64,000 nt of DNA from an uncultured Chloroflexia bacterium (GCA_963765765.1 CAVXYC010000007.1:1-64000); one strand, 5' to 3'; numbered from the stretch's first letter, positions 1 through 28,234 are shown. Notes: a model not told the origin generated them from the letters alone. Translations and numbers: made by a program.

Positions 1-16
1 TATTTCCCGGTAAATG
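1..16. mobile_element. Candidate attL of an island integrated at the dnaN 3' end
   Basis: TATTTCCC|GGTAAATG shares the core TATTT-x-CCGG with 13327-13342. Swapping halves gives a perfect 14-bp palindrome and an in-frame recombinase C-terminus. Confidence 0.65.
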
Positions 17-120
17 AAAATCGGGTGACGGGCCTGCCCTTCGCGGTAACCGTGACGTTGTAGCGACACCAAGACGACTGGGCTTCGTGAATGGCGGACT
101 CAGCGATCACACCATAGCCT

Positions 121-190
121 CCTTGTCAAGTCTGCTGGCCTGACCGGAAACGGTTCCGATAACCACGTCAATGGTGACTTATCTGGAACC
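121..190 (-). repeat. Terminal element, inverted homologue of 45159-45226
   Basis: The reverse complement reads GGTTCCAGAT...GGTTATCGGAACC-N21-CTTGACAA, the same layout as 45159-45226. Confidence 0.6.
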
Positions 191-226
191 AGGGAGATTT
201 GAACCAGCCTCGAGTTGGCCCGGTTC

Positions 227-252
227 GTTCCGATAATGGCCGTTATCGGAAC
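227..252. repeat. dif-like site
   Basis: GTTCCGATAA-TGGCCG-TTATCGGAAC. Confidence 0.85.
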
Positions 253-270
253 ATCGACCGCCCCGGGTGA

Positions 271-1294
271 CTACTGGATGACTTCGGTTGCTTGCAGGAG
301 GACCGACTGCGGGATGGTCAGCCCCAGGGCCTGCGCTGTTTTGAGATTGATGATGAAGTCAAAATCCGTGGGCCGCTCCATCGGCAGGTCGCCGGGTCGG
401 GCACCTCGCAGGATTTTGTCCACGTACGGTGCTGCACTCCGGTAGATCGCGGCTCGACTCGAGCCATATGTCAGCAAGCCTCCCGCCCGAGCGAACTCCG
501 GAACTTCCGCGATCGACGGCAGCCGATACTGGAGCGCTAACTCGGCGATGCGTTCCACGCAGAGTCGAACCTGGCGTTGCGGAGAATATTGAGGGCATCA
601 GCGCCGGCTGTGGACATGGCCGCGAACGCGTCGTCGAGGCCGCTGATGTTCGGCATGGCGACCACGTGAAGGTGTACCCCGGGCCGGGCGCGGCCTCCTG
701 GAGCGCCCGCACGCGTCGCACATCCGAAGCCGAAGGGTTCTCTGCGCTGCCTGGACGGAGCACGGCTACACGGGAGGCGTGCGGGACCGCTTCCTTCAAT
801 AGTTGCAGCTGCTTGCCTACCAGTTGCGGCCCGCTTATGCCGGCCGTCCCCGTGATGTTCCCGCCGGGCCGCGCGATGTTGTCGACGAGCCCGATCTCGA
901 TTGCATCCTCGCTGACCAGGATCGCCACGAGCGGGACGGTGGCGGTCACCTGCTTGGCGGCGAGGATCCCGTCGACGACGCCACTACAATCAGCTCGACC
1001 TTCTGCTGGACGAGCTCGGTCGCGAGCGCCCGATACCGTTCGGTGTCTCCTCGGTCCAGCGGGACTCCACGGCGAGGTTCGGCCCTCCACCCAGCCCAGC
1101 TCCCGCATTCCATCCAAGAACGCGTTCCAACGCCCGCCAGGCGCGTCGCCGAGGACCCCGATCAGGCGCACCCGCTCGGACGTTGGGGCCTGGGGAGGGA
1201 GCAGTCCGCAGCCGGCCAGCAGACCGAGGCTGGCCACGGACAGGCCAGCCCTCAGGAATCGGCGACGGGTGCTCGATGGTTCGAGTGGCGTCAT
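271..1294 (-). CDS. Orphan ABC transporter substrate-binding protein (ABC_sub_bind / Trp-Tyr type), frameshifted
   Basis: Tat/lipoprotein-like leader RRRFLR...LLAGC, motifs NIARPGGNITG and YVDKILRGARPGDLPMERPTDF; split across frames. Confidence 0.85.
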
Positions 1295-1412
1295 GATGGC
1301 GCTAGTGTACGCCCGCGTGGTGCTACAAGGCAGTGACGGTGTCGTCAGCAAGGACCAAAGATGTGAAACCGAGTCTGGGCTGCCCTTCTTTCGCTGAGTC
1401 CTAGGCAGGCAC

Positions 1413-1436
1413 GGGCCGACAATGGGTTATCGGCCC
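1413..1436. repeat. dif-like site (variant, short spacer)
   Basis: GGGCCGACAA-TGGG-TTATCGGCCC; flanking DNA is homologous to the site at 35901. Confidence 0.7.
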
Positions 1437-1629
1437 GTGCGCTTCCCAAGAGGCGCGCGTCCTCATGCATCTGATGCGCGCCGGCCCGCCCACGAGGTTG
1501 GCGATGGGCCCTCGTCGTCAAGGACGGGCGATCCGGCACCAATTCGGTACGATTCCGAGCGCCGACTCTGTCCCGAGGACGTTTCGACAGGCTCGGGGAT
1601 TCTGAAGCGGCAGGTCGTTAAGATCGCGC

Positions 1630-1652
1630 TGACCGCCAATACTCACGGGAAC
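1630..1652 (+). promoter_or_regulatory. Repeated promoter/leader motif
   Basis: TGACCGCCAATACTCACGGGAAC, identical to 2633-2655. Confidence 0.6.
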
Positions 1653-1678
1653 CCGATCTCAGTGCGGGGAGCACCGGC

Positions 1679-2635
1679 ATGACCGAGTATCTCTTCGACA
1701 ACGCGGCGCCCGAGGTGGCCCGGCGAATTGACGCCCTGGCCTCGCTCTACGACCCGATCACCGCGCGGCATCTCGAGGCGCGCGGTGTGGCCGATGGCTG
1801 GCACTGCCTGGAAGTCGGGGGCGGCTCCGGCTCGGTGGCCGCCTGGCTCGCCCGGCGGGTGGGGCCGACCGCAGGGTCGTCGTCACGGACATCGACCCGC
1901 GGCATCTGGAGGCGCTGCAGGGGCGGCCTCGCGAACGTCGAAGTGCAGCGCCACGATGTCACCGCGGACTCGCTGGAGGACGGCGCCTTCGACCTGGTGC
2001 ACGCGCGGCTCGTCCTTGGACACGTGCCGGCCCGGCGCGAGGCGCTCGGCCGGATGGCCGCGGCGCTGCCGGCCGGGCGGGTGGCTGGTGGCCGAGGATT
2101 TCGACCTGCGCTTCGCCGACCCGACCTGGGCCACCGAGGCCGGGCGTTCGCCGCGCTCTATGCGAAGATGCAGGACGCGCTGATCCGACTCCTGGAATCG
2201 CGCGGCGCGGACCCCGAGTGGGGTCGCCAGCTCCCGGCGGCCCTGCGCACCGTGGGAATGTGGGACGTCGGGGCGGAGGGGCGCATCGCGCTCGCGCCGG
2301 GCAGGTCGCCCTCGGCCGGGCTCTATCGGGCGAATATCGAGCAGGTCCGGGCGGAGGCGGTGCGGGCGGGACTCATCGCCGACGAGGAGGTGGACGAGCT
2401 GCTCGACGGCCTGGACGATTCGAACATCGCAGGGAGCACCCGTGTGATGATCAGCGCGTGGGGCCGACGACCGCCCGGCGGGACACGGTGGCGGCGGATG
2501 CTGCACCCCCGGTGCTGGTATGCGAGTACGGGAACCGCGAAGGATCGTCTGATAAGGCGGATTATCGGAAGTTCCAACTCTTGGAGGTCTGCTAGGAGGA
2601 GCCGCGGCGGCTGCATGTTGACAGTCCTGCGATGA
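1679..2635 (+). CDS. Class I SAM-dependent methyltransferase, frameshifted (homology probably ends near 2480)
   Basis: CLEVGGGSGS motif I, FDLVHARLVL and C-terminal MISAWGRRP. Confidence 0.8.
   Translation: MTEYLFDNAAPEVARRIDALASLYDPITARHLEARGVADGWHCLEVGGGSGSVAAWLARRVGPTAGSSSRTSTRGIWRRCRGGLANVEVQRHDVTADSLEDGAFDLVHARLVLGHVPARREALGRMAAALPAGRVAGGRGFRPALRRPDLGHRGRAFAALYAKMQDALIRLLESRGADPEWGRQLPAALRTVGMWDVGAEGRIALAPGRSPSAGLYRANIEQVRAEAVRAGLIADEEVDELLDGLDDSNIAGSTRVMISAWGRRPPGGTRWRRMLHPRCWYASTGTAKDRLIRRIIGSSNSWRSARRSRGGCMLTVLR
2546..2571. repeat. dif-like site
   Basis: CGTCTGATAA-GGCGGA-TTATCGGAAG. Confidence 0.7.
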
Positions 2636-2655
2636 CCGCCAATACTCACGGGAAC
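2618..2655 (+). promoter_or_regulatory. Sigma70-like promoter TTGACA-N17-AATACT
   Basis: Exact -35 box and 17-bp spacer upstream of the hydrolase ATG at 2677. Confidence 0.6.
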
Positions 2656-2676
2656 TTGATCTTCGGGAGGCTGGGC

Positions 2677-2793
2677 ATGGCCACCTTTGTCCTCGTCCAT
2701 GGCTCGTTTGGTGGCGGCTGGTGCTGGAAAAAGCTCGTGCCGCAGCTTCGCAATGCGGGGCACGAGGTGTACGCTCCCACGCTCAGTGGCCTG
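2677..2793 (+). pseudogene. Alpha/beta hydrolase (esterase) N-terminal fragment
   Basis: MATFVLVHGSFGGGWCWKKL...YAPTLSG, truncated after about 39 aa. Confidence 0.8.
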
Positions 2794-2796
2794 CTC

Positions 2797-2902
2797 CAGA
2801 GAGCAGAATCGGGCATCGTCAGTCCGATCGCCTGAGCTGTTCTAAGATTGATGGTGAAATCGAATGTACTGTGCTGCTCAACAGGAAGGTCCGCAGGCGT
2901 AG
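2797..2902 (-). pseudogene. C-terminal remnant of an ABC substrate-binding protein
   Basis: PADLPVEQHSTFDFTINLRTAQAIGLTMP matches the SBP C-terminus. Confidence 0.75.
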
Positions 2903-2906
2903 CACA

Positions 2907-3923
2907 ATGTCTCAGCTCCAAGACGTACGCAGGCGAGATTTCCTGAGAGTCAGTCTGGCCGCGGCGACTGGCTTGCTGGCTGGCTGCGGGCTGGTATCAC
3001 CACTCTCCTCGCCGCGCCAGCCGGCGAGAGTCCATCGCTTGGGCTGGCTGTCCGGCGGCGGGGCGGACACGAATACGCCATCGCTCGAAGCCTTCCGACT
3101 GGGGATGCGCGACCAGGGCTACGTCGAGGGCCGCGACTTCACCCTGGAGACGCGCTGGGCCATGGGGCAGCTCGTTCGCCTTCCCGAGCTGGCCGCCGAG
3201 CTCGTGGGCATGCCCGTCGACGTGATCGTGACCGCCGGGGCCGGCCCTATCCGCGCCGCGATGCGTGCAACCACTAGCATCCCCATCGTGATGGCAGAGA
3301 CGAACGACCCGGTGGAGGACGGCTTGGTGGCCAGTCTCGCACGGCCGGGAGGGAACGTCACCGGGCAGACCAGCATTGCCCGCGAGCTGATCGGGAAGCG
3401 ACTGGAAGTCCTGCGAAGGACACTCCCGTCCGCGTCACGAGTGGGCGTTTTCTGGAACCCCGAAGCCAACCAGGCCGGCCAGTTGCAGATAGCGGAGGCC
3501 GCGGCCGGCCCCCTGGGGCTGACGCTGGTGCCGCTGGAGGTGCGTGAGCCCACCGCCATCGAGGGCGCGTTCCAGCGGGCGGTGCAGGAGCGGGTGGATG
3601 CGCTGACCCTGGTAGACAATCTCGTGCTCTCGAGCAATGTGGCGCGTGTGGGCGGGCGGGCGCTTGCGCACCGGTTGCCGATGGTGTCGACCGTCCAATT
3701 TGTTGAGGCCGGCGGACTGATCGCCTACGGGGCGAGCTTTGAGGAGCTGTTCCGCCGCTCGGCGTCGTACGTGGACAGGATCCTGAAGGGCGCCAATCCG
3801 GGCGATCTGCCCGTGGAGCGGCCGGAGAAATTTGACCTGGTGATCAATCTCACCACCGCACAGGTGCTGGGCCTAACAATTCCTCAGTCGGTCCTTGCCG
3901 AGGCGACGGAGATCATCCAGTAA
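2907..3923 (+). CDS. Orphan ABC transporter substrate-binding protein (ABC_sub_bind type)
   Basis: RRRDFL leader, LLAGC, SLARPGGNVTG and YVDRILKGANPGDLPVERP. Confidence 0.9.
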   Translation: MSQLQDVRRRDFLRVSLAAATGLLAGCGLVSPLSSPRQPARVHRLGWLSGGGADTNTPSLEAFRLGMRDQGYVEGRDFTLETRWAMGQLVRLPELAAELVGMPVDVIVTAGAGPIRAAMRATTSIPIVMAETNDPVEDGLVASLARPGGNVTGQTSIARELIGKRLEVLRRTLPSASRVGVFWNPEANQAGQLQIAEAAAGPLGLTLVPLEVREPTAIEGAFQRAVQERVDALTLVDNLVLSSNVARVGGRALAHRLPMVSTVQFVEAGGLIAYGASFEELFRRSASYVDRILKGANPGDLPVERPEKFDLVINLTTAQVLGLTIPQSVLAEATEIIQ

Positions 3924-3975
3924 CCCCACGAGTCTTTCTTTCTACGTCTCTTTGCTCGTTCAGCTAGGTTGGCTC

Positions 3976-4001
3976 GTTCCGATAATGGGGGTTACCGGAA
4001 C
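3976..4001. repeat. dif-like site
   Basis: GTTCCGATAA-TGGGGG-TTACCGGAAC. Confidence 0.85.
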
Positions 4002-4041
4002 TTCAAAAGCATCACCTATCTGACCGCTGCTGGGTCGCAGG

Positions 4042-4902
4042 TTATTGCTCCACCCAGCCGAGAGCCGTCACGCCGAATCCAGCCAGAAAGGCGTCCGGGT
4101 GGTTCCCCCAAGCCTGAACTTCCGCTGCAAGGAGGTCCATCCTGTCCCGATCAGCCCAGCCCTGAGTGGTCACGAGCTCGATGAACGCGGGCGTCGTGAT
4201 CTGCTCAACAAACCAGGCCGCGAAGTCGTGGGTGTGCTCGTCGGTCCCGTACACGCCGATGCACCCGAGACTGGCCCCTGCGACCGGACGCGCAAACCCG
4301 GCTTCGCGGAGAAGTCGGCGGTGGTGCCGTGGGCGGTACGGATCTCCCCCGTGGTGTTCCACGGCGCGGCGAAAAATGCGCTCGACCTCTACAAGGCGCG
4401 GTGTGCTCGGCTCCCACAGCCACGTTCCCATGTCGTCGTCGGCAATGCCGACTACCCCGCCAGGGCGAAGTACCCGACGCATCTCCTGAACCGCCCGTGA
4501 CGGATTAGCAAGGTGCACAAGCAAGTTGTGGGCGAAGACGGCGTCCATGCTCCCGTCAGGGAAAGGAAGCTCGTATACCGAGCCGCGCTCGAGTCGCAGA
4601 TTCGAAATGCCCTGACGCGCCGCCAATGCTCCAGCGCGCTCGAGCTGTTCAGCCTGCAGGTCCAGTCCGATCACCTCACCCGGAGCAACCAGCGTCGCCA
4701 GTCCGACCGTGATGGAGCCGGGGCCGCAGCCGCAATCGAGCAGGCGCATGCCAGGGCTGAGATGTGGGGCCAGGAAGCCCGCGGAGGTTTCGGCAGTGCG
4801 GCGCTCGAGCCGTCGCTGTTCGGCGGCGGTGGTCGAGTGCACATACCGAAGCTTGCGCCCGTCGGGCGAACCTTCGTCCGATATGGACTTTGATCGGCTC
4901 AT
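4042..4902 (-). CDS. UbiE-like SAM-dependent methyltransferase
   Basis: LLDCGCGPGSIT, LPFPDGSMDAV and RRVLRPGG. Confidence 0.9.
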   Translation of the reverse strand: MSRSKSISDEGSPDGRKLRYVHSTTAAEQRRLERRTAETSAGFLAPHLSPGMRLLDCGCGPGSITVGLATLVAPGEVIGLDLQAEQLERAGALAARQGISNLRLERGSVYELPFPDGSMDAVFAHNLLVHLANPSRAVQEMRRVLRPGGVVGIADDDMGTWLWEPSTPRLVEVERIFRRAVEHHGGDPYRPRHHRRLLREAGFARPVAGASLGCIGVYGTDEHTHDFAAWFVEQITTPAFIELVTTQGWADRDRMDLLAAEVQAWGNHPDAFLAGFGVTALGWVEQ

Positions 4903-5016
4903 TGCACCCTCCCCCAATCACCATCGCTGGGTCACTCGGATGGACCCCAGCATAGCTCACGGGCGATCGCAAGGGTCAACTTCACCAAATGGTCGTCCAT
5001 CGTGGTCGGCCGGGCC

Positions 5017-5043
5017 CTTCCGATAATCTGGAGGTATCGGAAC
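5017..5043. repeat. dif-like site (7-bp spacer)
   Basis: CTTCCGATAA-TCTGGAG-GTATCGGAAC. Confidence 0.7.
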
Positions 5044-5084
5044 GAGCCGTTTCCAGTAAACCGGTTGTGGACTCTGCCCTGATG

Positions 5085-5113
5085 TTGACAGGCCAGTGCT
5101 GATCGCCAATACT
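5085..5113 (+). promoter_or_regulatory. Orphan copy of the TTGACA-N17-AATACT promoter
   Basis: TTGACA-GGCCAGTGCTGATCGCC-AATACT with no downstream + strand gene. Confidence 0.5.
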
Positions 5114-5189
5114 CTCGGAGACCGGCGGCGCCGCGGTAAATGACGATTGCCGAACGGACAGCATGACGAGCGATTGCCGCGGCTACGAG

Positions 5190-5963
5190 TCAGATTGACG
5201 AACTCGCCAACCATCTATCGAGAAGGGCGCCATCGCCGAAGATCTGCAAGCGCTCATGGTGGGGCTTGCGCCTCCCGTACAGCAGCAACAGCATGTTGGA
5301 AGCGGTAGCCCGTACTGCCACATCGCCCTTCGCGTGGCCATGCTCCCAGCTAAACCCATCGGGATTCAACTGAATCAGCCACTCGCCATCGGCATCGGTG
5401 CAATGAAAGTGCAGAGTCTCGCCGGCACCCTTTAGGTTCTTGATGACGGGTGAGAAGGTTGCGAAGGGAAGGTTTTCCAGGAATTCGTCGACGCCGTCTA
5501 CGGCCACCACTGCATCAAACTCCGGCTCCAACCCGAGCGCCAGCTCGGCATCGGCCCGGTGTACCGCGGTCTCGTGGAGTTGGCGACGTGACCAGAACCT
5601 GGCGTGCTGGTCAGCACCCCAGGACCACGTGGGTTGATCGGGATCGGCCTTCCGTAACGCGTCCTGGAGTGCCTTACCGCCGGACCTGAACCAGCCCACG
5701 ATCTCGCTCGGCTCGTCCGGAAAGCGCAAGTCCAGATCCCCATGACTTAGTCGGCGAGTCATGCCCTCCGCGACCATCCGGCCCGACCAGCGATGAATCC
5801 CACCCACGTGCTTCACCAGACCGGCCAGGTCCCACGGCGGGCATGATGGTACGGTTGCCGCCAGATCCGCCCTGTCAAGGACAGTCGCGAAGCGCTCCAG
5901 CTCGGCTGCCAGGGCATCACAGCACTCCGTGTGGTTCACGCTGAAATCCTCCCATCGAGGCAT
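5190..5963 (-). CDS. Maleylpyruvate isomerase family (MDMPI, DinB-like) protein
   Basis: VPSCPPWDLAGLVKHV, RRQLHETAVHRADA and LLLYGRR. Confidence 0.85.
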   Translation of the reverse strand: MPRWEDFSVNHTECCDALAAELERFATVLDRADLAATVPSCPPWDLAGLVKHVGGIHRWSGRMVAEGMTRRLSHGDLDLRFPDEPSEIVGWFRSGGKALQDALRKADPDQPTWSWGADQHARFWSRRQLHETAVHRADAELALGLEPEFDAVVAVDGVDEFLENLPFATFSPVIKNLKGAGETLHFHCTDADGEWLIQLNPDGFSWEHGHAKGDVAVRATASNMLLLLYGRRKPHHERLQIFGDGALLDRWLASSSI

Positions 5964-6447
5964 TACGCGATCTCTGCGACGTTCACCAGGTCCTGTCGGC
6001 GACGGCTGTAGTCGAGTATGAAGTTGAGGCTTGCCAACATTTGCACGTCGGTCGGCTTTAAGGGCATGCGCAGTCCTTGCGGTATGGCACTGTGTTCAAC
6101 GGGCTCAATTGGGTGTTCCCATTGTTCAGTGCAGATTACGGCCGGGCACCGTCGGAGTCAATCTAGCGAGGAGCCTAGTCTCTACCCGCCCGTTAACGTG
6201 ACGATGGTGCGGCGCGTTCACTTTTAGAGGAGCTGCCGGCGCCAAACCTTGCAGACGGAGCCGACCCGCTCATCTGCAACGTTCTCGGCTTCCTGTTTGG
6301 CATCCGGCGCACCCTCACCAACGAGGCCACGGGGCCGACAAGCGGCGACCAGACGCTGGCGGCGACCCGGGGTACGTGAGCGTAAACCGAAGATAGTGTC
6401 TTGAGCGAGATCCGTCATAGCGTTCGAATCAGTGACCGTAGCCTGTA

Positions 6448-6732
6448 TTAGTGGCTGCCGCAGTGCGCGCGAAAGCGTGCTTGAACCGTGCCCGCACCGC
6501 CATGCGTGAGCACGACCTCGCACCGCGGGAGCAGGAGCGACTGTGGAATGCAGCGTGCCACATGCGCATTCGCCGGCACGGAGCCGAGCGCAGCCGGTTT
6601 GGCGTCCGGGCCCAGGGTCAGGATTTGATTTGAGGAACAGAGTGAGGATGCGGAGGCGGTTGCACAACTCGCTGCGGCGCTGGCCCAGGTGAACGATGAG
6701 ATGGATCGCCGGATCGCCGAGGGCTGAGGCAA
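6448..6732 (-). pseudogene. GT1/UDP-glycosyltransferase C-terminal fragment
   Basis: PANAHVARCIPQSLLLPRCEVVLTHGGAGT signature without an intact N-terminus. Confidence 0.7.
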
Positions 6733-7033
6733 CCGCCCTCACAGCGTGACGAGAAACGGCCTCCGCAGGGCGGGGTGGTGTCCCGAACCTGTGGGCATGG
6801 CGCTGGGGCGACGAGCGATCCTGGAATAGGAACGGTGGATGCTCCATGCGCGTCTGGCTAAAGAGTGGTACACCTGGCCTTCCGCACGGGCCAGGGTGAC
6901 CGCCTCCAACAAAGAGCGCCACGCTCGTCCCAAGCGTGGCGCTCTTTCGACGCCGACCGCTGAGCTTTCCCCATCGTCAATGAATCTCAGCGATCGCATC
7001 AGCTCGGCCCGTAGACCGGTAAAATTGTGCTGT

Positions 7034-7125
7034 ATGTGTGGACGCTCCACGCTGGGTGATCCCAGCCCCCTGATGCGCCGGTTCGGCCTCGAAGAGTCTG
7101 CCGAGACGGACGTGAGGCCGCGTCG
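7034..7125 (+). pseudogene. SRAP N-terminal fragment
   Basis: MCGRSTLGDPSPLMRRFGLEESAET, a near copy of the start of the gene at 12084. Confidence 0.8.
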
Positions 7126-7241
7126 CATCTGTACCGGAGTAAACGAGCTGCGTGTGCCGGGCGTTTAAGAGATGGGCCTCTGGACGGATGCGAGAGGCCG
7201 GATGCTTGTACACCTGCTGATACAGGAGGATCGACGGACCG

Positions 7242-7889
7242 ATGGACCAGCGCCTCCCTAAGGCCGTCTATTTCGCCGGCCTGGTTGCCGAGATCGTGGT
7301 GCGCATTCCCCACGAGCGGCGCCGCCGACGCATCCCGAAAACCGACCAGCGCATCACGCACGCCGAACGGGGCCTGTTCGCGGCGCTGTCGCTGGCGACG
7401 GGTGCGCTGCCAGCGCTGTACAGTCTGACCCCGTGGCTCGCCTTCGCCGACTACCCACTGTCGCAGCGCGCGAAAGCTGAGGTTGGGAAGGTCGGCACCG
7501 TGCCCCTCGCCGCGGCGGTCTGGCTCTTCTGGCGGGCCCACCGCGATCTGGGGACCAACTGGTCGCCGTCGTTGGAGATCAGCGCGCAGCACAGCTTGAC
7601 CACGGGAGGGGTCTACCGAACGATGCGCCACCCGATGTATACCTCCCAGCTCGTGTGGGGGGTCGCACAGGCACTGCTGCTGCCGAACTGGATCGCCGGC
7701 CTCGGCGGTCTGGTTACGTTCGCCCTCTTGTGCACCGTACGCGTCCCGCGCGAAGAGCAGATGATGCTCGATCACTTCGGCGACGCCTATCGGGCCTACA
7801 CGGCACAGACCGGCCGCATCGTGCCGCCACTCCGTAGCTCACGCCGTCTTCGCCCGCTGCGGCACGATGCAGGTGGTAGCTCAGCGTAA
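7242..7889 (+). CDS. Isoprenylcysteine carboxyl methyltransferase (ICMT) family membrane protein
   Basis: LGTNWSPSL, GVYRTMRHPMY and REEQMMLDHFGDAYRAY. Confidence 0.9.
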   Translation: MDQRLPKAVYFAGLVAEIVVRIPHERRRRRIPKTDQRITHAERGLFAALSLATGALPALYSLTPWLAFADYPLSQRAKAEVGKVGTVPLAAAVWLFWRAHRDLGTNWSPSLEISAQHSLTTGGVYRTMRHPMYTSQLVWGVAQALLLPNWIAGLGGLVTFALLCTVRVPREEQMMLDHFGDAYRAYTAQTGRIVPPLRSSRRLRPLRHDAGGSSA

Positions 7890-7979
7890 GAGCGAAAGGT
7901 CCATCGAAGCGCCGCTGGCCCGTGACAGGGAGGATGTCCACCCATTGCAGCGTGCAGATTGCGGGTCGACCAGTCCATC

Positions 7980-8203
7980 GTCTCCCCAACCCCACAGTGA
8001 CACGCAGGCGACGAGGGCCAAGGCCCAGACGGGGTGCATGTCGCCCTGACCCACGCGGTAGCCGGCGAGGAGCATTGCCATGTCGCCGGGCAACGGCAGC
8101 GGGAAACCGGTCTCCTCGATGAGCAGCCAGAGGACACGGTCTGATGATCGTACCGGTCGATCAGCCAAAGCATCAGCTCGGCCGCCCGCTCCCAGATCTC
8201 CAC
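7980..8203 (-). pseudogene. DedA family membrane protein fragment
   Basis: IEETGFPLPLPGDMAMLLAGY motif, truncated. Confidence 0.7.
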
Positions 8204-8290
8204 CCGGCCACCCCCGACGCGCCAGATCTTCGTGACCTTGCCATCCCGGTACGGCGCATGCTCGATCAGGTCGTGGCAGCATCGCAGTCG

Positions 8291-8525
8291 TCAATCGACC
8301 GGCTCGAGCTCTTCGGGGATGTAGGGGCCGGCGCGCTCGAGCTGGTTGTACGCGGTCTCGGCGTCCGTGCCTGACTCGGATGGAACCCGCGCTGCGGTAT
8401 CAAGCTCCACGAAAATCGCCCCCTCGTCCGTGATCCCGTCGACCGAGATGACCGTGCCTGGTCCTGTCGAGCGTGAGGATCTTGACTCGTTGACCCACCG
8501 ACGGGGTCCAGTCACTTCGCACCAT
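8291..8525 (-). CDS. Small hypothetical protein (about 78 aa, one frameshift)
   Basis: GGAGG RBS then MVRSDWTPSVGQRVKI...GTVISVDG...EELEPVD. Confidence 0.5.
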
Positions 8526-8895
8526 CGGTTCCTCCTCCGTCTTGCGTCCCAGAACCCGTGAAGCACATCGCGCCGGATCCCGCCGCGGCGAGGGGCACGG
8601 TGCCGAGGCTCCGCCTGTGCCCTGCCGAAGCGCCGCCGGGCATCACGGTACTTCCGCTGGCCCACCTGGAGCGACTGCCGGATGATGACACGGAGCGCCT
8701 GCTCGAGGGTGCCCGTTAGTGCGAGCAGCTCGCAACGGAGGCCAACGCCCGCACGGCGGATCGGCACTACGGCGAACGGGGCATGAAAGCTCGGCCGAGC
8801 TAGGGGCGCTGGGGCTCCTCGATGTCACGGGCACGAACGGCCCGCGGCCCCCGACCGCGCCCGGTTCGGTGGACCAGGTAGGAGTAGTGACTCCC

Positions 8896-9225
8896 CTACT
8901 TCAGATTCTTGACGATTCCGTCCTCGGTCTTGCCGATCTTCGTCCGGATGGTGCCGAGCGTGCCGATAACTTTCGCGCGCCGCTCCATCGCCTTCCGGAG
9001 GCGGAGCGCGTCCATCTCGCACGTCTCGCTCAGCGAGTCGAGCATGCAGGTGAGGGCGTCCTCGGCTGCGCGCACCTCGTCGGCCAAGGACGAGAGGGAG
9101 TTGGGCGAAGACCCCTGAATGTAGGCCCGCCGCGGTCGCGAGCTCAGCGCTACGGCATGCGCGAGTTCGCAAACATCAAGACGGTTGTCGGGAGCGCAAG
9201 GCTTCGATCGGGGCTGATGCAACAC
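8896..9225 (-). CDS. Hypothetical helical protein with a T3SS needle-like C-terminus
   Basis: LDSLSETCEMDALRLRKAMERRAKVIGTLGTIRTKIGKTEDGIVKNLK; start uncertain. Confidence 0.5.
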   Translation of the reverse strand: MLHQPRSKPCAPDNRLDVCELAHAVALSSRPRRAYIQGSSPNSLSSLADEVRAAEDALTCMLDSLSETCEMDALRLRKAMERRAKVIGTLGTIRTKIGKTEDGIVKNLK

Positions 9226-9289
9226 GACGCGTTCCGCCCAAGTCTAATGGAGTAGTGGGGCTTATGAAGGCTGAGACCTGGGGGTAGAC

Positions 9290-9928
9290 ATGCACCGCGA
9301 GAGCGCTCACGCTCCGACAACGACCGGCCGTGTGCTTCACAGTCACGCCCACTGGTACGACTGGATGGGCACCATCATCTCGTTCGGACGGGACAGGGCG
9401 GTCCGCGAGGAACTCATAGAGCTGGCCGCGCCCGAGCCCGGGGAGGAGGTGCTCGACGTTGGGTGTGGCACTGGCACGCTCGCCCTCGAGCTTGAGTCGC
9501 GGGTCGGGACGGGCGAGGTGCATGGCATTGACGCTTCGCCCGAGATGATCGAGGTCGCCAGGGAGAAGCTGGCGAAGACAGGCTCAGGTGCGGACTTCCA
9601 GGTAGCGCTGATCGAGGCGATCCCATTTCCCGATGCGACGTTCGACCTCGTGACAAGTAGCCTCATGCTGCATCACCTGCCAGACGATCTGAAGCCCACC
9701 GGACTGGCGGAGATACGTCGTGTTCTGAAGCCGGGAGGCCGATTCATGGCGATGGACTTTGCGGCGCACAGCCATTCTCCCATCGGTCACCTGATGGCGA
9801 TCTTGGGGCACTCGCACGGAGAAAGCACGGTTGATCGTTTGACGCCGATGCTGAGGGATGCCGAGTTCACCGTCGTTGAGAGTATTCCCACGCGCCACAA
9901 GAACTTCGCATTCATCCGCGCGCACTGA
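9290..9928 (+). CDS. Class I SAM-dependent methyltransferase
   Basis: VLDVGCGTG, IPFPDATFDLV and RRVLKPGG. Confidence 0.9.
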   Translation: MHRESAHAPTTTGRVLHSHAHWYDWMGTIISFGRDRAVREELIELAAPEPGEEVLDVGCGTGTLALELESRVGTGEVHGIDASPEMIEVAREKLAKTGSGADFQVALIEAIPFPDATFDLVTSSLMLHHLPDDLKPTGLAEIRRVLKPGGRFMAMDFAAHSHSPIGHLMAILGHSHGESTVDRLTPMLRDAEFTVVESIPTRHKNFAFIRAH

Positions 9929-10352
9929 CACACCAAGCGCCGCCGGTGGACGCCCGAAGGAGAGTCTAGGGTTTGACCCTTTCAGAAAACCGCCTGGACG
10001 CTCTGTAATTAAGGGGGACGGACGCGACAATTGAGGTACGGATCGCCTTGGGAGCTAGCGGGTCCGAAAATCATTCTTGAGCACCACCATCGCCAACTGC
10101 ATCATGGCGGGTGGCGAGCTTGATCGACGTGAAATCAGAGGTAGTCCGAGAGCGAGAAGCTCCGGGCTGGTCATAGTTCGCGTGTGCTCCGCCCAACCGG
10201 AACTGGCAAATGAGCAGGTTGGGAAGTCGTAGGAATCACGGTGTCGACGTCATGCATCGCCAGCCGGGATTTCTTACTACGGTCAGCAGTCAGGAGTCAG
10301 GACACAGATGACGCTTCCGCGTGCTTCCAGCCCGGGTCTATAGTCAGGAACC

Positions 10353-11898
10353 ATGGACGGCTTAGCACCCAGGTTCGCCATCATCGCAAACCGAGGTCCC
10401 AACGATTTCATCTGGAAGAATGGCGATTGGGTCTGCCGACCGGCGGCCGGCGGGTTGGTCAGCATGCTTGCGCCGTTGGCGCGCCAACCCAATGTCACCT
10501 GGATTTGTTGTGTTTCGGAGCCGCCTGATGCCCGGTCCGCACGCGAAGGTCTGTTCACTACGGCGGCCGATCAGAGCGATCCTAGGCTGCACGTGGTGCC
10601 CGTGCCACTACCCGGCGGACGTTTACGGCGACTATTACGGTCGCATCAGCAATGAAGTACTTTGGATGCTCCACCACCAGGTCATCGGGCATGGTGGCTA
10701 CGAGCAGATTGACGAGCAGCGCCACCACGCCTGGACGAAGGGCTACCTGGAGGCCAACCACAGACTGGCCGTCGCCGTTTCGGAGACTTGTCCGGAGGCG
10801 AAGGGCTTCCTCGTTCAGGACTACCACCTGTATCCGTTGCCGGCCCTGCTCCGGACCAGGTTCCCGCGCGCCCCGATCCTGCACTTCACCCACATCCCGT
10901 TCCCCGAACCGTCCGTGTTGAAACTGATCCCGAGCGCCTGGCGAGAGACAATCCTGAGAGGCATGCTCGGAGCCGATGTCGTCGGCCTTCAGACTCCCGC
11001 CGACGTTGAGGCGTTTCTCGCCTGTTGTACCAACGTATTGGGCATGGCAATAGACCCTATCCGGTCAACGGTCATGGCAGAGGGACGGCGGGTTCGCGTG
11101 CGGGCGTACCCTGCAAGCGTCGACTTCCGGGGGCTGCAGCGACTCATGCAGTCGAATGCGGTGATGGTGGCCCGCAGGCGATTGGAGCCGCGTCTAAAGT
11201 CGCTCAACATCATTCGCGTTGATCGCCTGGATCCCAGCAAAAACCAGCTCATTGGATTCCGTGCGTTTGCTCGCCTGCTTGAGCTGCGACCGGATCTGCG
11301 TCCGAGTGTCCGCTTCCTCGCGTTTCTGATACCGTCACGAACCGACTTAGACATTTATCGGGCCTACCGCGATGCCGTCTATCAGTGTATCGATGAGATC
11401 AACTCGCAGTACGCCGACGAGTGCGGCCGTCCGCCGATCGAGGTCTTTTACACGAACGATCGCGATCAGGCGCTGGCGGCAATGGAATCCTGTGATGTGC
11501 TCATGGTCAACTCACTCAAGGACGGGATGAATCTGGTAGCCAAGGAGTGGGCGGTGGTCTCTCAGCGCCCCGGTGTCCTGATCCTCTCCGAGACAGCGGG
11601 CGTGGTAGAGGAGGCCTCCGACAGCGCTCTGCTGGTGTCGCCGCTGGATGTCGAAGGGACAGCTAAGGTCATGGCCGAGGCCCTTGAAATGCCGGAACCG
11701 GAGCGCGCCGAGCGTCTCGCGCGTTTTCGCGATCGGGTTGCTCGCTGGACCGCCCAGAACTGGCTATCAGCGCAGCTCGACGACTTGGGGCTCGGAGCCG
11801 TGTTTCCCGGGCGACCGGTCGGTCGACCAGGTCCACGAGGCTGGGGCCGCAAGGCGAGCGAGAGATTCGCGGGTGAAGGAAGTCCACCCGCCGAGTAG
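10353..11898 (+). CDS. otsA: Trehalose-6-phosphate synthase (GT20), frameshift near 10610
   Basis: IIANRGP, AAGGLV, VQDYHL, HFTHIPFP, RVDRLDPSKN and DGMNLVAKE. Confidence 0.85.
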
Positions 11899-12083
11899 AG
11901 GTCGCCCACGACGTATCGATCCTGCTCTAGGAATCGCAACAACCGAGCTGTCGTGGTCTGGCGCATGCCGCAACAGCGCTACGTATCCACAGAGCGTAGC
12001 GGCGATAGCCAGGACAGCAACTATGGGCCACGGTTCGAGTGGGATTACCAGCCAGAGTCTAGCGAAGTGCTACCCTGACTTCG

Positions 12084-12732
12084 ATGTGCGGACGATACAC
12101 GCTGGGTGACCCCAGCCCCCTCAAGCGCCGGTTCGGCCTGGAGGAATTTGCCGAGACGACGATCACGCCCCGGTTCAACGTGGCGCCGTCGCAGGACATC
12201 CCCATCGTGGTGCAGCACTCGAATGGACACTCGGGAGCTGCGGATGGCCAAGTGGGGCTTTGTGCCGCACTTCATGGACGGGAAGCCGGGCAAGCGCCCG
12301 CCCCCGATCAACGCGCGCGCCGAGACCCTCGCTACCAGTGGCATGTTTCGCGGGAGCATCGCCAAGGGGCGCTGCATCATCCCCGCGGATGGCTTCTACG
12401 AGTGGAAGATGATCGATCCCGACAAGAAGACCAAGCAACCGATGTACATCCAGCTCCAGGACACGAGCCTGTTCGGCTTCGCGGGGATCTACACGACGCC
12501 GACGAAAGCGCACCCGGCGGGAACGGCCGCGATCATCACCACTACGCCGAACGAGCTGATGGCGTCAATCCACAACCGGATGCCGGCGATCCTCCTGCCG
12601 GCCCTGGAAGACGTGTGGCTCGATCCGAAGATGACCGACACCTCGGAGGCACTCACGCTGTTGACGCCCTACCCGGCGGATGCCATGATCGCCACACCCG
12701 TCAGTACCAGGGTGAACACCGGCTGCGAATGA
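12084..12732 (+). CDS. SOS response-associated peptidase (SRAP/YedK), frameshift near 12225
   Basis: MCGRY N-terminus, PRFNVAPSQ, INARAET, ADGFYEW and IHNRMP. Confidence 0.9.
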
Positions 12733-13029
12733 GGGCGCAGAACTGATTCTGCCCACCAGCTTCGCCTAAGGGGCGTGCGCTTTACAGATCCAGTGCCAGC
12801 CCCATACTCCGCTGTGCTTCCGCTGCTCATTGCCCCAATGATCATGAGACACCAGCCCAGGCTGGTGCCTCATGATTGGGCAGTCCCTCGTTCCTACCAA
12901 GGAGGGAGCCAGGGTGTATCTATCTCAGCGTTCCGCTTGCCCGCGCGTGAGGTCGTCCAGCGCCCAGTCGAGCGGCTTGCCCACGAAGCTGGCGGGCGGG
13001 TGCGCCCGGCGCTCATGCTCGATCGCTCG

Positions 13030-13335
13030 GCGTTGTTCACTCTCGGGGCGGTCGACGCTGATATTGTGCAGGCACAGGGTACTCAACTCAAGCAGCGACG
13101 GGTGGCGCTCGAGAGGAACCTCGTCGAATTACGGAAGGACGTTGACGCACCGACGAGTTCGGTTGATCAGGCCCAACTTGACCGAATCTGCAATGCCATT
13201 GGGGCATGGGTAGACCGCGCCGACGATCAGGAACGCATACAGATTTTGGAAGCACTCCAGATCGCGGTTCGGGCAACGCCGGAGTACGCGGAAGTGACCG
13301 GAGTCATCCCCAACCAGGTAGAAGGCTATTTACCG
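13030..13335 (+). pseudogene. C-terminal remnant of a large serine recombinase/integrase
   Basis: Coiled coil then ADDQERIQILEALQIAVRAT..AEVTGVIP, typical of LSR tails; reads into the dnaN end; no catalytic domain. Confidence 0.65.
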
Positions 13336-13342
13336 GGCAATA
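13327..13342. mobile_element. Candidate attR overlapping the dnaN stop codon
   Basis: TATTTACC|GGGCAATA; the island half supplies the dnaN TAA. Confidence 0.65.
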
Positions 13343-14481
13343 TGCATCGGCATAACAACGTGGAAGTAGTTGTCCGCGTCGGGGCCGACGGGGCGGAGGA
13401 TTCCGGGGCTGGTGGGACCGGTGAGCTGGAGAGTGACCTGGCCGGTGTCGATGGCGTCGAGGGCCTCGCGCAGATAGCGGCCGTTGAAGGCGACTTCCAT
13501 GGTGTCGCCGTCGATGCTCGCGTCAAGCTCTGTGGTATTGTCACCGATCTCGGCGGCGCTGGAGCTGACAACCACCTGACCGATAGCAAGTGACTCTTCG
13601 GGCGGCTTGATGGCCAGGCGGACAATCATGGCATTATCGCGCGCGAATACCGAAGCGGCGCGGGTCGCCTGGAGGAGGTCGGTGCGGCCCAGGACAACCT
13701 TGGTGTTGGCCTGTTGGGGGATGATGCGCTGATAGTCTGGGAACTGTCCTTCTACTAAGCGGCCCGTGACTTCGATGGTGCCGAAGCTGAATTGGATCTG
13801 GTTCTGAGAGGGCGTGGCGGCGACCTGAACGTGCTCGTTCTCGATGTCGGGCAGGACGCGCGCCACTTCGCCGAGCGTACGGGCGGGGACGATCATGTTG
13901 AGCTCTTCCGGAGCGGCGCCCTCGGGGAGCATCATTCCGCGCACGGCCAGACGGAATCCGTCCGCCGCGGCCAGCGTCAAAATGCCTTCCTTAACCGTCA
14001 ACAGCACGCCCGCGAGCACCGGACGGCTATCGTCCTGTGCCGCTGCCAGAGCAACCTGACCGATGCACTTCTTGAGCAGGCTTGTCTCCATAATGAAGCC
14101 CGACTCACCACTCACGCTGGGGACGGGCGGAAAATCTTCTGCATCGATCCCGGCGAGGTGCGCTTCCTGTCGGCCACAGACGAGGTGAACGCGACGCGAG
14201 CGGGCGTCAAGCTCCAGATCGATCTTCTGACCTTTCTGGAGCAGACCGACGTACTCGGAGAGGACTCTGGCCGGAAGGGTAATCGCGCCTTCGGCCTGAA
14301 TCTGCGCACCGATGTAGCAGGTCATGGCCATCTCGAGGTTGTTGGCCACCAGCTTGAGGCGGCCGCCCTCGGTCTCGAGCAGAATGTTGGACAGCACGGG
14401 GAGCGTCGTGCGGGTAGGCACTACTCGACTCAGTGAGGCGAGTGCCTCGGCCAGGTTCTCTTGAAGACACGAAAGTTGCAT
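13330..14481 (-). CDS. dnaN: DNA polymerase III subunit beta
   Basis: MQLSCLQENL, AADGFRL, EGQFPDY, AFNGRYL and VVMPM. Confidence 0.97.
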   Translation of the reverse strand: MQLSCLQENLAEALASLSRVVPTRTTLPVLSNILLETEGGRLKLVANNLEMAMTCYIGAQIQAEGAITLPARVLSEYVGLLQKGQKIDLELDARSRRVHLVCGRQEAHLAGIDAEDFPPVPSVSGESGFIMETSLLKKCIGQVALAAAQDDSRPVLAGVLLTVKEGILTLAAADGFRLAVRGMMLPEGAAPEELNMIVPARTLGEVARVLPDIENEHVQVAATPSQNQIQFSFGTIEVTGRLVEGQFPDYQRIIPQQANTKVVLGRTDLLQATRAASVFARDNAMIVRLAIKPPEESLAIGQVVVSSSAAEIGDNTTELDASIDGDTMEVAFNGRYLREALDAIDTGQVTLQLTGPTSPGILRPVGPDADNYFHVVMPMHIAR

Positions 14482-14817
14482 GAAGCCCCCGTAGGCGATA
14501 TGCCGGCACGCAGGCCGGGATGATTGGACTGATAGGTAGTTTGCCTATTCTACCGGTGGGTCTCTGTAACGTGCGTCAGGCTGATAATTTGGAGGTTATG
14601 TCGCCGTCGAGGCGCGGCTGATCCCTCGGCCGTCGAAGCAGGATCCGGATTTCCCAACGGCTCTCAATGACACTGCGAAGTCGTCTCGCCCGCGAGGTCA
14701 GCGCTGCGTACTGCTGAGATCGTCTGGAATGTCCTCAGCCGAATGGACAGGGCGATGGAGGATATCGCGAGTCCCTATCCTAACCGTCTCCCATGGAGAG
14801 AGGAAACTTTCCCGTAG

Positions 14818-15579
14818 CTACAACTCGATGGTAAGACCGTCGTAGGCGCACTGGATGCCGGTTGGGAGACGAGCGTTCATGGCGGCGTGGTCGACCTCGT
14901 GCGTGAGGTGGGTGAGATATGCCTGGCGCGGCTGGAGATCCTGGATGACCTCCACGGCCTGGGAGATACAAAAGTGGGTTGGGTGCGGCCGCTCGCGCAG
15001 CCCGTCGAGCACCAACACATCAAGCCCTCGAAGAAGCTTGCGCGAGGCATCCGAGACGCCATTGCAGTCAGTCAAGTATGCCGCGTTACCCACGCGGTAC
15101 CCGGTGGATCGGATTCGCCCGTGCTCCAAGGGTATGGGGGTAATCGAGACACCGCCCACCTCGAATGGCTCGCGATCGATAGTCGTGTACTCAATATGCG
15201 GAATGGCGCCGATCCACTGAGTTCCCGCCAATGCATAGGCGTAGCGCTCTTTCAGTGCATCGTACGTTCCCTCATCGCCATAGCAACTTAGCGGACCTCC
15301 GGCAACGGCGTTGAATGCTTTCACGTCGTCCAGTCCGCTCACATGGTCAGCGTGGTAGTGCGTGAACAGGATCGCATCGACGCGCTTGATGTGGTTTGCC
15401 AGTGCCTGGAGCCGTAGCTCAGTGGATGTATCGATCAGCAGATTGACGCCGTCCACCTCGAAGTATGCTGAGCAGCGCATCCTGCGATTGCGACTATCGG
15501 TCGATGTACAGACAGGGCATTCACAACCAATCATCGGAACGCCAAAAGACGTCCCGGTGCCGAGAACGGTGAAGCGCAT
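14818..15579 (-). CDS. MBL-fold metallo-hydrolase (PhnP-like)
   Basis: LGTGTSFGVP.IGC.C..C, THYHADH and AYDGL. Confidence 0.9.
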   Translation of the reverse strand: MRFTVLGTGTSFGVPMIGCECPVCTSTDSRNRRMRCSAYFEVDGVNLLIDTSTELRLQALANHIKRVDAILFTHYHADHVSGLDDVKAFNAVAGGPLSCYGDEGTYDALKERYAYALAGTQWIGAIPHIEYTTIDREPFEVGGVSITPIPLEHGRIRSTGYRVGNAAYLTDCNGVSDASRKLLRGLDVLVLDGLRERPHPTHFCISQAVEVIQDLQPRQAYLTHLTHEVDHAAMNARLPTGIQCAYDGLTIEL

Positions 15580-15659
15580 GAGAGTTTCAGTATACGTTCT
15601 AAGCGACAGCGTTCAGGGGATCGGGTTGAGATGCGTCAGTCGACCTCTACCTCGCACCT

Positions 15660-15959
15660 CTAGCGCGGAACGCTCAGCAGGAAGACAGGCCAGGGAGAGG
15701 CTAGGAGGGCGGTACCGATGGCGGCAACGACCTGACCGCGAGTGCGGCGCATGGCCAGGACCCAGCGTGCCAACGCGAAGCCCGTGACACCCATGATCAG
15801 GGCAGGAATGATAAACAAGTCAACCCGTGATCCAAACCAGAGTACCTCCATGGCCGCGGTGGCCAGGAATATCGGCGTCTGGATGAGGGCCGCGATGAGG
15901 GTGGTCCTAACCGAGAAAACCCGAATGAGGCGAACCGTGAGCTGCAGACAGGCGAGCAC
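15660..15959 (-). CDS. Small membrane protein (start probably upstream)
   Basis: Several hydrophobic segments, co-oriented with neighbours. Confidence 0.5.
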   Translation of the reverse strand: MLACLQLTVRLIRVFSVRTTLIAALIQTPIFLATAAMEVLWFGSRVDLFIIPALIMGVTGFALARWVLAMRRTRGQVVAAIGTALLASPWPVFLLSVPR

Positions 15960-16026
15960 GGCGAAGTTCCAGAGGAACGCCAGCGCCAGACCTAAGGGTG
16001 AAAAAAGCGCCGCCAGCCCCTGAGTC

Positions 16027-16470
16027 TCAGGATTCAGCGGCCGTCACCATGCGCTCCACCTGCGGGCCCACGCCTTTAAGCAGCTTGCGTGTGTTCTTAA
16101 AGGTCAGCAGGTTCCTTGCCCAGCCTACGGGCACGGGAAATGTATCGATGCCCAGGTGCTCATCGATCTCGTCAGTCTCGCCGGTCACCTTCATCACATA
16201 AAAGGTAACACGGCGCATTGAGTGCCCCTTCTTGAAGGCGATTGCGCCGGCAACGCCGACGGTCTCCGTCCGAAGGCCGCATTCTTCCTCAATCTCACGA
16301 ATCGCCGTCTGCTCGGGTGTTTCGCCGGCTTCGATATGGCCCTTTGGAAATACAAGGTGCCCGGCCTTGGTGAGGCGCAACACCACCTTGTCGCCCCAGA
16401 CGACGATGCCACCGGCCTGTTCAGCAATCGGCAAGTCTCGGCTCTTCTTCGGCTTGTCGTGGAAGGACAT
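16027..16470 (-). CDS. NUDIX hydrolase
   Basis: PKGHIEAGETPEQTAIREIEEECG Nudix box. Confidence 0.9.
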   Translation of the reverse strand: MSFHDKPKKSRDLPIAEQAGGIVVWGDKVVLRLTKAGHLVFPKGHIEAGETPEQTAIREIEEECGLRTETVGVAGAIAFKKGHSMRRVTFYVMKVTGETDEIDEHLGIDTFPVPVGWARNLLTFKNTRKLLKGVGPQVERMVTAAES

Positions 16471-16587
16471 GACCTAGGAGTTATGATACGCGAGCGCCGC
16501 GTCGGAGAGGCAGACGCGGCGCTCGATGAAATAGGTTGTTGCTCATTAGAGAAGCGGGCGCAGGGCGTGAGTAGTGGAGTCTCAGGT

Positions 16588-16984: not shown

Positions 16985-17041
16985 GTGTGCCTCCTTCCGG
17001 GTGCTCGAGCGTCGACCGATTATTCAAGTCCATAAAGATCA

Positions 17042-17238
17042 CTAATCACCCTGATTCGAGGCCGCGCGCATCTGCTCAATCTCGGTTTCGAGATCGCGTA
17101 TGCGCGCCGCGGTCTCGGCAAACGGCGCACCGCTGCCGTCACGCAGAGTCGCGCTGGGACCCGATGAGTGCGTGGAGAACCCCGGGGAGGGGCGGGCCAA
17201 GGAATAACCTCCGCCAAGCTGAGCCAATCCGTTGTCAA
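17042..17238 (-). CDS. Small hypothetical protein, frameshifted
   Basis: AGGAG RBS downstream of the GT-C gene; C-terminal coiled coil RIRDLETEIEQMR. Confidence 0.35.
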
Positions 17239-17245
17239 CTCCTAC

Positions 17246-28222: not shown

Positions 28223-28234
28223 GTTTGGCGGAGG

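Follow-up and report, generated by a model that had tools for sequence, protein, structure and literature searches.

The 3' end of dnaN, the gene for the beta sliding clamp, carries the junction of an integrative element in an uncultured Chloroflexia bacterium. The stretch of DNA analysed here, referred to as the window, comprises positions 1-64,000 of contig C7 in the Chloroflexota metagenome-assembled genome (MAG) G000 (33 contigs, 91.8% complete, 6.9% contaminated). The sequence at 13328-13350 is a real dnaN-proximal junction, and belongs to an element from a Chloroflexota clade of large serine recombinases (LSRs) that insert at the dnaN 3' end. A first-pass annotation had interpreted positions 1-13342 as one island in the last codons of dnaN, placed there by a dnaN-targeting LSR family whose local copy was immobilised; the family and the immobilised remnant stand, while a single, cleanly excisable 13.3-kb island is not supported. 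Sequence comparisons make it probable that window 1-63 is a relic unit inverted with respect to the dnaN core, that the 13.3 kb is mosaic DNA of an accretion zone, and that the right junction derives from a dnaN-targeting LSR element.

The dnaN gene is intact, and its last codons, stop codon and three further bases make up a 23-bp core (Table 1). On the plus strand the frame across 13300-13335 reads ...GVIPNQVEGYLP and then continues antisense to dnaN (13336-13593). DNA synteny with G001, a genome of the same genus, covers dnaN and its upstream genes and ends at 13331. G001 gives no empty site: its contig ends 411 bp past dnaN; this 411-bp stretch has no match in G000 (blastn and tblastx, 1e-3) and resembles another accessory gene. 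An unrelated open frame (...DDYQDIVALDLLVELLEHPSRYEYVEVEADDAGALDD...) lies directly after dnaN there (L044, G001:C157 3542-3952), and the dnaN-downstream slot is therefore variable in that genome too.

The reading frame that runs into dnaN encodes the C-terminal end of an LSR. LSR homology had been anticipated for the peptide encoded by 13030-13335, and was found: identity is 63-64% to P0071 and 61% to P0108. The only near match among longer proteins is P0071 (552 aa, with Resolvase, Recombinase and Zn_ribbon_recom domains), at E 8.5e-29 and 64% identity. A tblastn comparison of P0071 with the window gave 63% over 167 aa, including the read-through antisense to dnaN; since the alignment extends this far, P0071 therefore sits against a dnaN likewise. 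P0108 is 61% identical over 109 aa (tblastn), and a 514-aa LSR from genome G007 is 40% identical over 93 aa. A scan of 1.84 billion representative proteins returned 89 matches at E<=1e-3, 10 of them at E<=1e-10, mostly C-terminal fragments of such recombinases.

The homology is confined in domain terms to the C-terminal region that follows the zinc ribbon. The resolvase catalytic domain PF00239 is present in the G007 LSR, and P0071 also has a Resolvase domain; the Recombinase (PF07508) and zinc beta-ribbon (PF13408) domains are present in both and in all 120 homologues among the matches listed. The remnant has no N-terminal catalytic domain, starting at about residue 407 with none upstream, and the Recombinase and zinc-ribbon domains are missing locally, with no Pfam match for 12775-13593. 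At 13032/13033 it is abutted by a foreign gene fragment, and a deletion or rearrangement therefore took the catalytic part. The fragment belongs to a family with three copies in the genome (the window, C14:109484-109561 and C20:363404-363481), with the C-terminus ...HPPASFVGKPLD(R/W)ALDDLTRGQAER; in the window, only the 3' part of the gene is present.

No paralogue of the remnant was found in this genome, and no other LSR body of the family in the assembly except a 37-aa piece on contig C10. A search of the class for closer LSRs of the YLP type gave matches in 7 of 66 genomes at E<=1e-6, none above 41% identity besides the window. Within the window's own order, 11 of 39 genomes have a homologue at E<=1e-30 and this genome has none. 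The local element is dead, with its catalytic part deleted and no autonomous movement, in agreement with the earlier suggestion that loss of the catalytic domain had immobilised it. What is found is not an active excisable island: the recombinase is truncated, and matched attL and attR sites could not be shown.

Homologues of this recombinase occur repeatedly beside dnaN. With a family profile built from 14 members, 79 loci were found in species-representative genomes; almost all belong to Chloroflexota (Dehalococcoidia, Tepidiformaceae and Anaerolineaceae). At 45 of the 79, the 3' ends of dnaN and the LSR abut convergently. At 24 loci dnaN is absent from the downstream sequence, of which at least 400 nt is present; at 6 the downstream sequence is too short to judge, and at 4 the LSR match stops before the C-terminus. 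In G007, the 514-aa LSR carries all three domains and converges on and overlaps dnaN, so that full-length homologues do abut this gene as had been proposed, and the LSR frame in the window is likewise convergent with dnaN and antisense to it. This distribution indicates that the family targets the dnaN 3' end. A tyrosine-recombinase type of island, suggested by the long common core, was considered and dropped, as the adjacent gene is an LSR at those 45 loci. G007 also has a second LSR (L119, C73:346176-347714), which lies far from dnaN, is 76% identical to the dnaN-adjacent one and closes with 13 codons of dnaN-end sequence; this end is either an unsplit site or an internal junction.

The C-termini of 210 homologues were compared. 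Integrated forms either extend into dnaN in the antisense direction (...SPLNKHRHDDVHVAV..., ...YLPCDMHRHHHVKV...) or terminate inside it (...FFILQRASA, ...IEQTSA). In continuous forms, approximately 8-10 codons of dnaN-end sequence are followed by a tail, G-[LIV]-P-F-x-V-T-[VI]-x-L, and a stop codon. C-termini with the core followed by the tail were found in P0137, P0046, P0028, P0044, P0085, P0108, P0149 and L166. The core is read antisense in P0108 (YLP-CNMHRHDN-SASNKTDAGYSVPFFITLDL), P0149 (...RASA-CTFNTAKLFDRPGIPFRETIALA) and L166 (...IEQTSA-WTFNNHKPESSYVPFRRTIT), and in the sense direction, in a shifted frame, in P0137 (...NSHPDAYC-PVNEKRALGVPFQVIVALA) and likewise in P0046, P0028 and P0085. 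One further family member, P0201, has a short-linker C-terminus.

The continuous forms show that the element therefore bears a copy of the last dnaN codons inside its integrase gene. We conclude from these alignments that the attachment core lies inside the LSR's own 3' end, and that integration splits off the conserved tail. At the level of the family this agrees with the first-pass proposal of an attP inside the 3' end of the recombinase gene, with the core located there and a conserved tail lost on integration; the accompanying general statement that some LSRs have attP in their own 3' end was not confirmed in the literature. The C-terminal residues of the beta clamp are functionally important, which would explain why the dnaN-end copy is kept. 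The tail is possibly only a DNA-binding arm and not coding, given that some TGATAAACCGG-type units (described below) break the frame; yet diverse LSRs end in the peptide motif.

We searched five complete or near-complete chromosomes for extra copies of the dnaN 3' core. One extra core in the same orientation as dnaN lies downstream of it in each of G066 (78.6 kb), G067 (187 kb) and G068 (58.7 kb). G070 has three in the same orientation, 53, 68 and 98 kb downstream, and four more far off, two of them inverted; G069 has no extra core. At the core copies in G066 and G068, the LSR strand reads the reverse-complement core and then a tail that completes the C-terminus of the dnaN-adjacent LSR, giving RTSA-WTFSNHKPDQDPVHFRRTF and SPLYEHRHD-CSPVTNGGSEFLPFRRTF, respectively. 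A second LSR converges on the core copy in both. This pattern is serial accretion.

The left end of the window is different from these distal junctions, which combine a direct core repeat with the split-off tail: window 1-30 lacks GCAATATGCATCGG after CCGG, and the flank to the left is unseen. The canonical partner of 13328-13350 would be a direct 23-bp core repeat followed by an SASN-type tail, and the true partner of the window's dnaN junction may lie elsewhere. Window 1-63 nevertheless encodes an LSR tail (YFPVNENRVTGLPFAVTVTL-stop in frame 1). Five exact sites in the genome carry the string CCGGTAAATGAAAA; the other four, together with one near-exact site, are all preceded by the core. The other four exact sites have ...CCGATGCATATTGC, a sense copy of the dnaN end, before the string and a tail of approximately 45 nt resembling window 17-63 after it. 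In a wider pattern scan, 12 of 21 hits were such units or dnaN itself and 9 were unrelated. There are 11 full units and the truncated one at position 1, thus at least 12, across 8 contigs (Table 1), with sub-types TAAATGAAAA and TGATAAACCGG. Of the 11 other full units, 8 share without change a 16-bp stretch of the 23-bp dnaN core, CGATGCATATTGCCCGG.

The sense frame of the units resembles the ends of sense-type LSRs, as in the C32 unit (NSHPDAYCPVNEKRASSLPFQVTVAF-stop) compared with P0137. Four units encode tails on both strands, the other strand reading (H/S)(L)PGNMHRDDYYASNSNEARSGSLPFSFTF..., and this second tail is of the class of P0108, the homologue 61% identical to the window remnant. 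Such two-sided units are as expected from an antisense-type island inserted in a dnaN that already bore a sense-type tail. The order dnaN, core and sense tail is found directly after dnaN in G023, and also in G006 (an unpublished genome, on which no conclusion rests). A convergent ABC_sub_bind (substrate-binding protein) gene recurs after units, and no recombinase was found among 28 open reading frames (ORFs) scanned beside four other units. The two units on C15 sit in DNA absent from G001, with an imprecise boundary.

The spacer between the tail and the convergent ABC_sub_bind gene (117-252 in the window; copies for example at C6:36599-36646 and C23:468755-469043) contains an inverted repeat, GGTTCCGATAAC ... 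GTTATCGGAAC, and has no Rfam match. Several units lie 0-15 kb from a contig end, and there are three direct-orientation pairs with a spacing of 12-18 kb. The scattered units may mark former island boundaries and may explain assembly breaks.

Table 1. Features at the two ends of the window, the genes between them, and the core-and-tail units elsewhere in the assembly. Positions are those of the window unless a contig is given.
Feature	Position	Strand	Remarks
Last 8 bases of a core like the dnaN 3' end, cut by the contig start	1..8	+	Sense core TATTGCCC 7/8; LSR-side ATTTACC 6/7; identity ambiguous
LSR C-terminal tail, PVNEN class	9..63	+	Homologous to tails of 5 other units; matches P0137 C-terminus (HPDAYCPVNEKRALGVPFQVIVALA)
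Spacer repeat	117..252	+	Also after tail at C6:36599, C1:3159, C1:191176, C23:468755
ABC_sub_bind pseudogene	271..1351	-	Two frames, 271-558 and 359-1351
Methyltransferase	1679-2635	+	Pfam
ABC_sub_bind, intact copy	2721-3923	+	Pfam
Methyltransferase	4042-4917	-	Pfam
MDMPI-family gene	5190-5963	-	Pfam
ICMT-family gene	7242-7889	+	Pfam
Methyltransferase	9290-9928	+	Pfam
GT20/OtsA-like gene	10420-11898	+	Pfam
Frameshifted SRAP (SOS-response associated peptidase) gene	12084-12746	+	Residues 1-56 in one frame, 40-205 in the other
3' fragment of host-type gene, fused to truncated LSR	12925..13032	-	Paralogues C14:109484, C20:363404
C-terminal LSR remnant, 101 aa	13033..13335	+	Aligns to residues ~407-515 of full-length homologues
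23-bp core CCGATGCATATTGCCCGGTAAAT (dnaN strand)	13328..13350	-	Last dnaN codons, stop codon and AAT
dnaN (beta sliding clamp)	13330..14481	-	Intact, 383 aa, ends MPMHIAR-stop
Unit	C1:3357	-	
Unit	C1:3510	+	Tails on both strands
Unit	C1:21252	+	Tails on both strands
Unit	C1:191050	+	Tails on both strands
Unit	C6:22426	+	
Unit	C6:36485	+	
Unit	C15:595852	-	
Unit	C15:607825	-	
Unit	C20:11297	-	
Unit	C23:468627	+	
Unit	C32:296891	+	Tails on both strands

Contig C7 begins at window position 1, and the host flank to its left is therefore absent from the assembly itself. No other contig of the assembly overlaps the start of C7. Five public sequencing runs contained 5-7% of the sampled words, and the four that were tried gave no cover of 1-300 and no joints. 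The contig is continuous across the right junction, and two orientations in the sample are not indicated.

The two terminal sites were compared directly. Bases 1-16 read TATTTCCCGGTAAATG and bases 13327-13342 read TATTTACCGGGCAATA. In direct orientation they match at 12 of 16 positions, which is the chance level (1.15 expected per window in 100 Markov-1 resamples); besides self-matches and the pair, the window contains 3 further direct matches of 12/16. As an inverted repeat they match at 14 of 16, with 0.02 expected. Their kinship is real, because both carry portions of a core that occurs many times in the genome, and not for the reason originally given. It is exceedingly improbable that 1-63 resembles these sites by chance and is unconnected to recombination sites. 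The 12/16 direct match taken alone would be expected by chance, but the exact 14-nt string and the tail of approximately 45 nt are common to four other sites, the tail is conserved at the protein level with database LSR C-termini, and the spacer repeat recurs after other units; the units and their tails already refute this idea.

The first-pass annotation took 9-13334 as one LSR island, with attL at 1-16, attR at 13327-13342 and crossover at the central CG. Excision would then give the 14-bp palindromic attP ATTTACC/GGTAAAT (the slash marks the join), an LSR C-terminus reading ...EGYLPVNENRVTGLPFAVTVTL, and attB TATTTCCC/GGGCAATA. The letters on which it was based are all correct: the bases at both ends, the frames, the MPMHIAR end of dnaN and the TAG at 61-63 were confirmed, and the exchange of half-sites is arithmetically right. 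Joining the half-sites keeps the reading frame and leads into the family tail motif and a stop codon. The tail and the LSR share a strand and sit at opposite ends, an arrangement also found in validated islands of the family. The end of G001 synteny at 13331, a raised GC content (63-67% across 1-10000, taken as five 2-kb bins, compared with 59-61% for 14001-30000), the position of the contig end 8 bp from the proposed crossover and the short-linker C-terminus of P0201 all fit as well.

We nevertheless regard this arrangement as unlikely. The direct match between the proposed sites is at chance level, as described above, and validated distal sites repeat the whole core of approximately 21-23 bp, which window 1-30 does not contain. 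Tails of the class encoded at 9-63 follow a sense core, as in five other units and in P0137 and P0046, and 1-16 is thus not supported as the matched attL of the remnant. P0108, which has a continuous ORF and is 61% identical to the remnant, continues differently, and the predicted fusion ...EGYLP/VNEN... has no counterpart among the homologues, with [YF][LF]PVN in 0 of 210. The junction 13334/9 (...GGCTATTTACC/GGTAAATGAAAA...), whether as a circle or as an empty site, is absent from the assembly, as are the predicted attP and attB strings. In metagenome scans, an exact 27-mer from the tail had 0 matches; a degenerate 20-mer that covered the predicted attP, the window form and the unit form had 28, all in unrelated AT-rich DNA and none with the unit form. 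Crossover at the central CG is unsupported. A palindromic central dinucleotide would remove the polarity of a site, which natural LSR sites generally avoid. Finally, a foreign gene fragment joins the LSR at 13033, so that what lies to the left of the LSR is not necessarily its cargo.

The inverted match raises a further scenario, a special case of the relic-unit reading: the 13.3 kb lies between inverted cores and was flipped by recombination between the then-unsplit core of the LSR and the dnaN core. The flipped state would be dnaN, core, PVNEN tail, spacer and ABC_sub_bind module at one end, and LSR, core and SASN tail at the other, which is a plausible history. The 14/16 inverted match, at 0.02 expected, favours it. 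The flip would restore the canonical order of dnaN followed by a sense-type tail, as in G023 and the units, and it predicts at the left end a two-sided unit like C32:296891 and C1:3510; inverted core copies occur in the complete chromosome of G070. Against this, it requires that the unseen left flank hold the rest of the core (sense ...CCGATGCATATT) and an SASN-type tail, and that an unsplit antisense-type element stood 13 kb from dnaN. The unbroken contig at the right junction also gives no sign of two orientations. We consider such an inversion rather doubtful, if less so than the single excisable island. In the Thermococcales, a mobile-element integrase is reportedly the cause of chromosomal inversions. 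One paper on this group presents a model for its frequent large chromosomal inversions (PMC5495485).

Under the relic-unit reading that we prefer, the attachment core would be a copy of approximately 23-30 bp of the last dnaN codons and stop codon, carried in the LSR 3' end in the sense or antisense direction, with the LSR frame running through the core into the tail. Integration would recombine the core of the element with the dnaN end and leave the dnaN C-terminus complete. With the antisense type, the LSR would end up converging on dnaN, and the tail would stay next to a direct core repeat at the distal boundary of the island. Repeated insertions would push older islands outward and scatter core-and-tail units. 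This genome would hold only relics, namely the units (at least 12) and one LSR remnant, of which a deletion probably removed the first approximately 400 residues and fused the rest to an unrelated gene fragment. Window 1-63 is most simply seen as another unit, composed of a sense core, a PVNEN-class tail, the spacer and the ABC_sub_bind module, and the 13.3 kb was possibly flipped by recombination between two inverted cores. The comparisons above show the LSR homology, the adjacency to dnaN across the family, the core within the LSR 3' end, the tail at distal cores and the multiple copies of the units; the position of the crossover, the order of events and what lies to the left of position 1 are all matters that we infer.

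Several observations weigh against this reading. The sequence left of position 1 is unseen, and the sense core (7/8) and the originally proposed half-site agree about equally well with the 8 bases that are visible. The tail at the left reading rightward, with the LSR at the right reading into dnaN on the same strand, is exactly the topology of an antisense-type island, which speaks for some pairing of the left and right ends. Only three members of the YLP subfamily are in the databases, just one of them a continuous-ORF form, so that the missing YLP/VNEN fusion is weak evidence, and G001 provides no empty site for comparison. LSR C-termini that seem unsplit could be internal junctions of tandem arrays and not true attP forms. 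The identity of the core on both partners means that it does not fix the crossover position. Lastly, the units are on 8 contigs, some of them mid-contig, and simple accretion at dnaN needs rearrangements or secondary insertion to account for this.

The region between the two ends contains accessory, cargo-like genes, listed in Table 1. No phage, conjugation or replication genes were found in 64-12900 using Pfam, and no Rfam families or tRNA were found in the region. The genes from 1679 to 12746 are mostly without a DNA match in G001. The SRAP gene is likely a frameshift pseudogene, or else reflects an assembly error. The ABC_sub_bind 3' end is highly repeated in the genome, with 39 matches to window 1-400, mostly to 271-400 (approximately 25 other places), and these repeats are a large paralogous expansion. 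On the other side of the junction, dnaA is not upstream of dnaN; a gap of approximately 330 bp (14482-14820) is followed by a same-strand MBL-fold hydrolase gene at 14818-15579.

Accreting LSR islands at the 3' ends of essential genes are already a known kind of system. What is new is dnaN as the target, the location of the core in the integrase ORF in both orientations, and the resulting swap of the tail. We found no paper title or abstract that describes dnaN as an LSR target; main texts were searched, and the supplementary tables of LSR surveys may list it. The SCCmec elements, mobilised by CcrAB, reportedly integrate at the 3' end of orfX (rlmH). They are said to resemble the present elements in being serine-recombinase islands at the last codons of a conserved gene that stays intact, and in forming composite and tandem elements; in contrast to the dnaN clade, they reportedly use a different recombinase subfamily in a two-protein system, with the att site outside the recombinase gene. 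In the integration-dependent immunity of mycobacteriophages, attP is said to lie in a coding region, so that integration alters the C-terminus and behaviour of a protein. The LSR tail, whose function here is putative, may be analogous; unlike in the dnaN clade, the split gene there is the repressor, the integrase is a tyrosine enzyme, and what is removed is a degradation tag.

The closest parallel is with the ssrA islands of Dehalococcoides, in which the serine recombinase is DsiB and 20-bp ssrA repeats bound tandem islands (PMC3146451). They come from the same phylum, and share with the dnaN islands an LSR whose integration site is the 3' end of an essential, single-copy gene, a direct repeat of approximately 20 bp of the gene 3' end at each boundary, and tandem islands that accrete downstream, many without an integration module. 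They differ in several respects: the target here is the protein-coding gene dnaN, with the recombinase converging on and overlapping it; the core here is inside the recombinase ORF, with its C-terminus swapped by integration; and the repeats here are on 8 contigs in both orientations, whereas there they lie within 100 kb. The tyrosine integrases of the archaeal SSV type have attP within the int gene (PMC8371274). They thus resemble the dnaN clade in having the att site in their own integrase gene, which is split upon integration, and differ from it in their tyrosine chemistry, in a split near the 5' part that partitions the gene, and in their tRNA targets.

For the window itself, these results mean a relic element, made up of a decayed junction and a relic unit, and the proposed excision product is unsupported. 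More widely, dnaN is essential and single-copy with a highly conserved C-terminus, and offers a stable landing site like ssrA or orfX. An LSR clade hundreds strong with a predictable, conserved bacterial target would be useful for annotating islands in Chloroflexota MAGs, for explaining assembly breaks near dnaN and for engineering pairs of integrase and att site. We put forward, as a tentative possibility only, that a widespread Chloroflexota LSR clade carries a copy of the dnaN C-terminus as its core in the integrase 3' end, in either orientation, so that each integration would re-supply the dnaN codons and cut off the tail; free forms would then be tailed and integrated forms tail-less, and the tail might act as a sensor of the integration state that sets stability or directionality. 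The cores might also drive accretion and local inversions near dnaN, and so near the replication-gene region. The clade would be a natural case of an attachment site inside an integrase ORF, and the tail swap, provided that it is functional, would link integrase activity to the state of integration in a new way.

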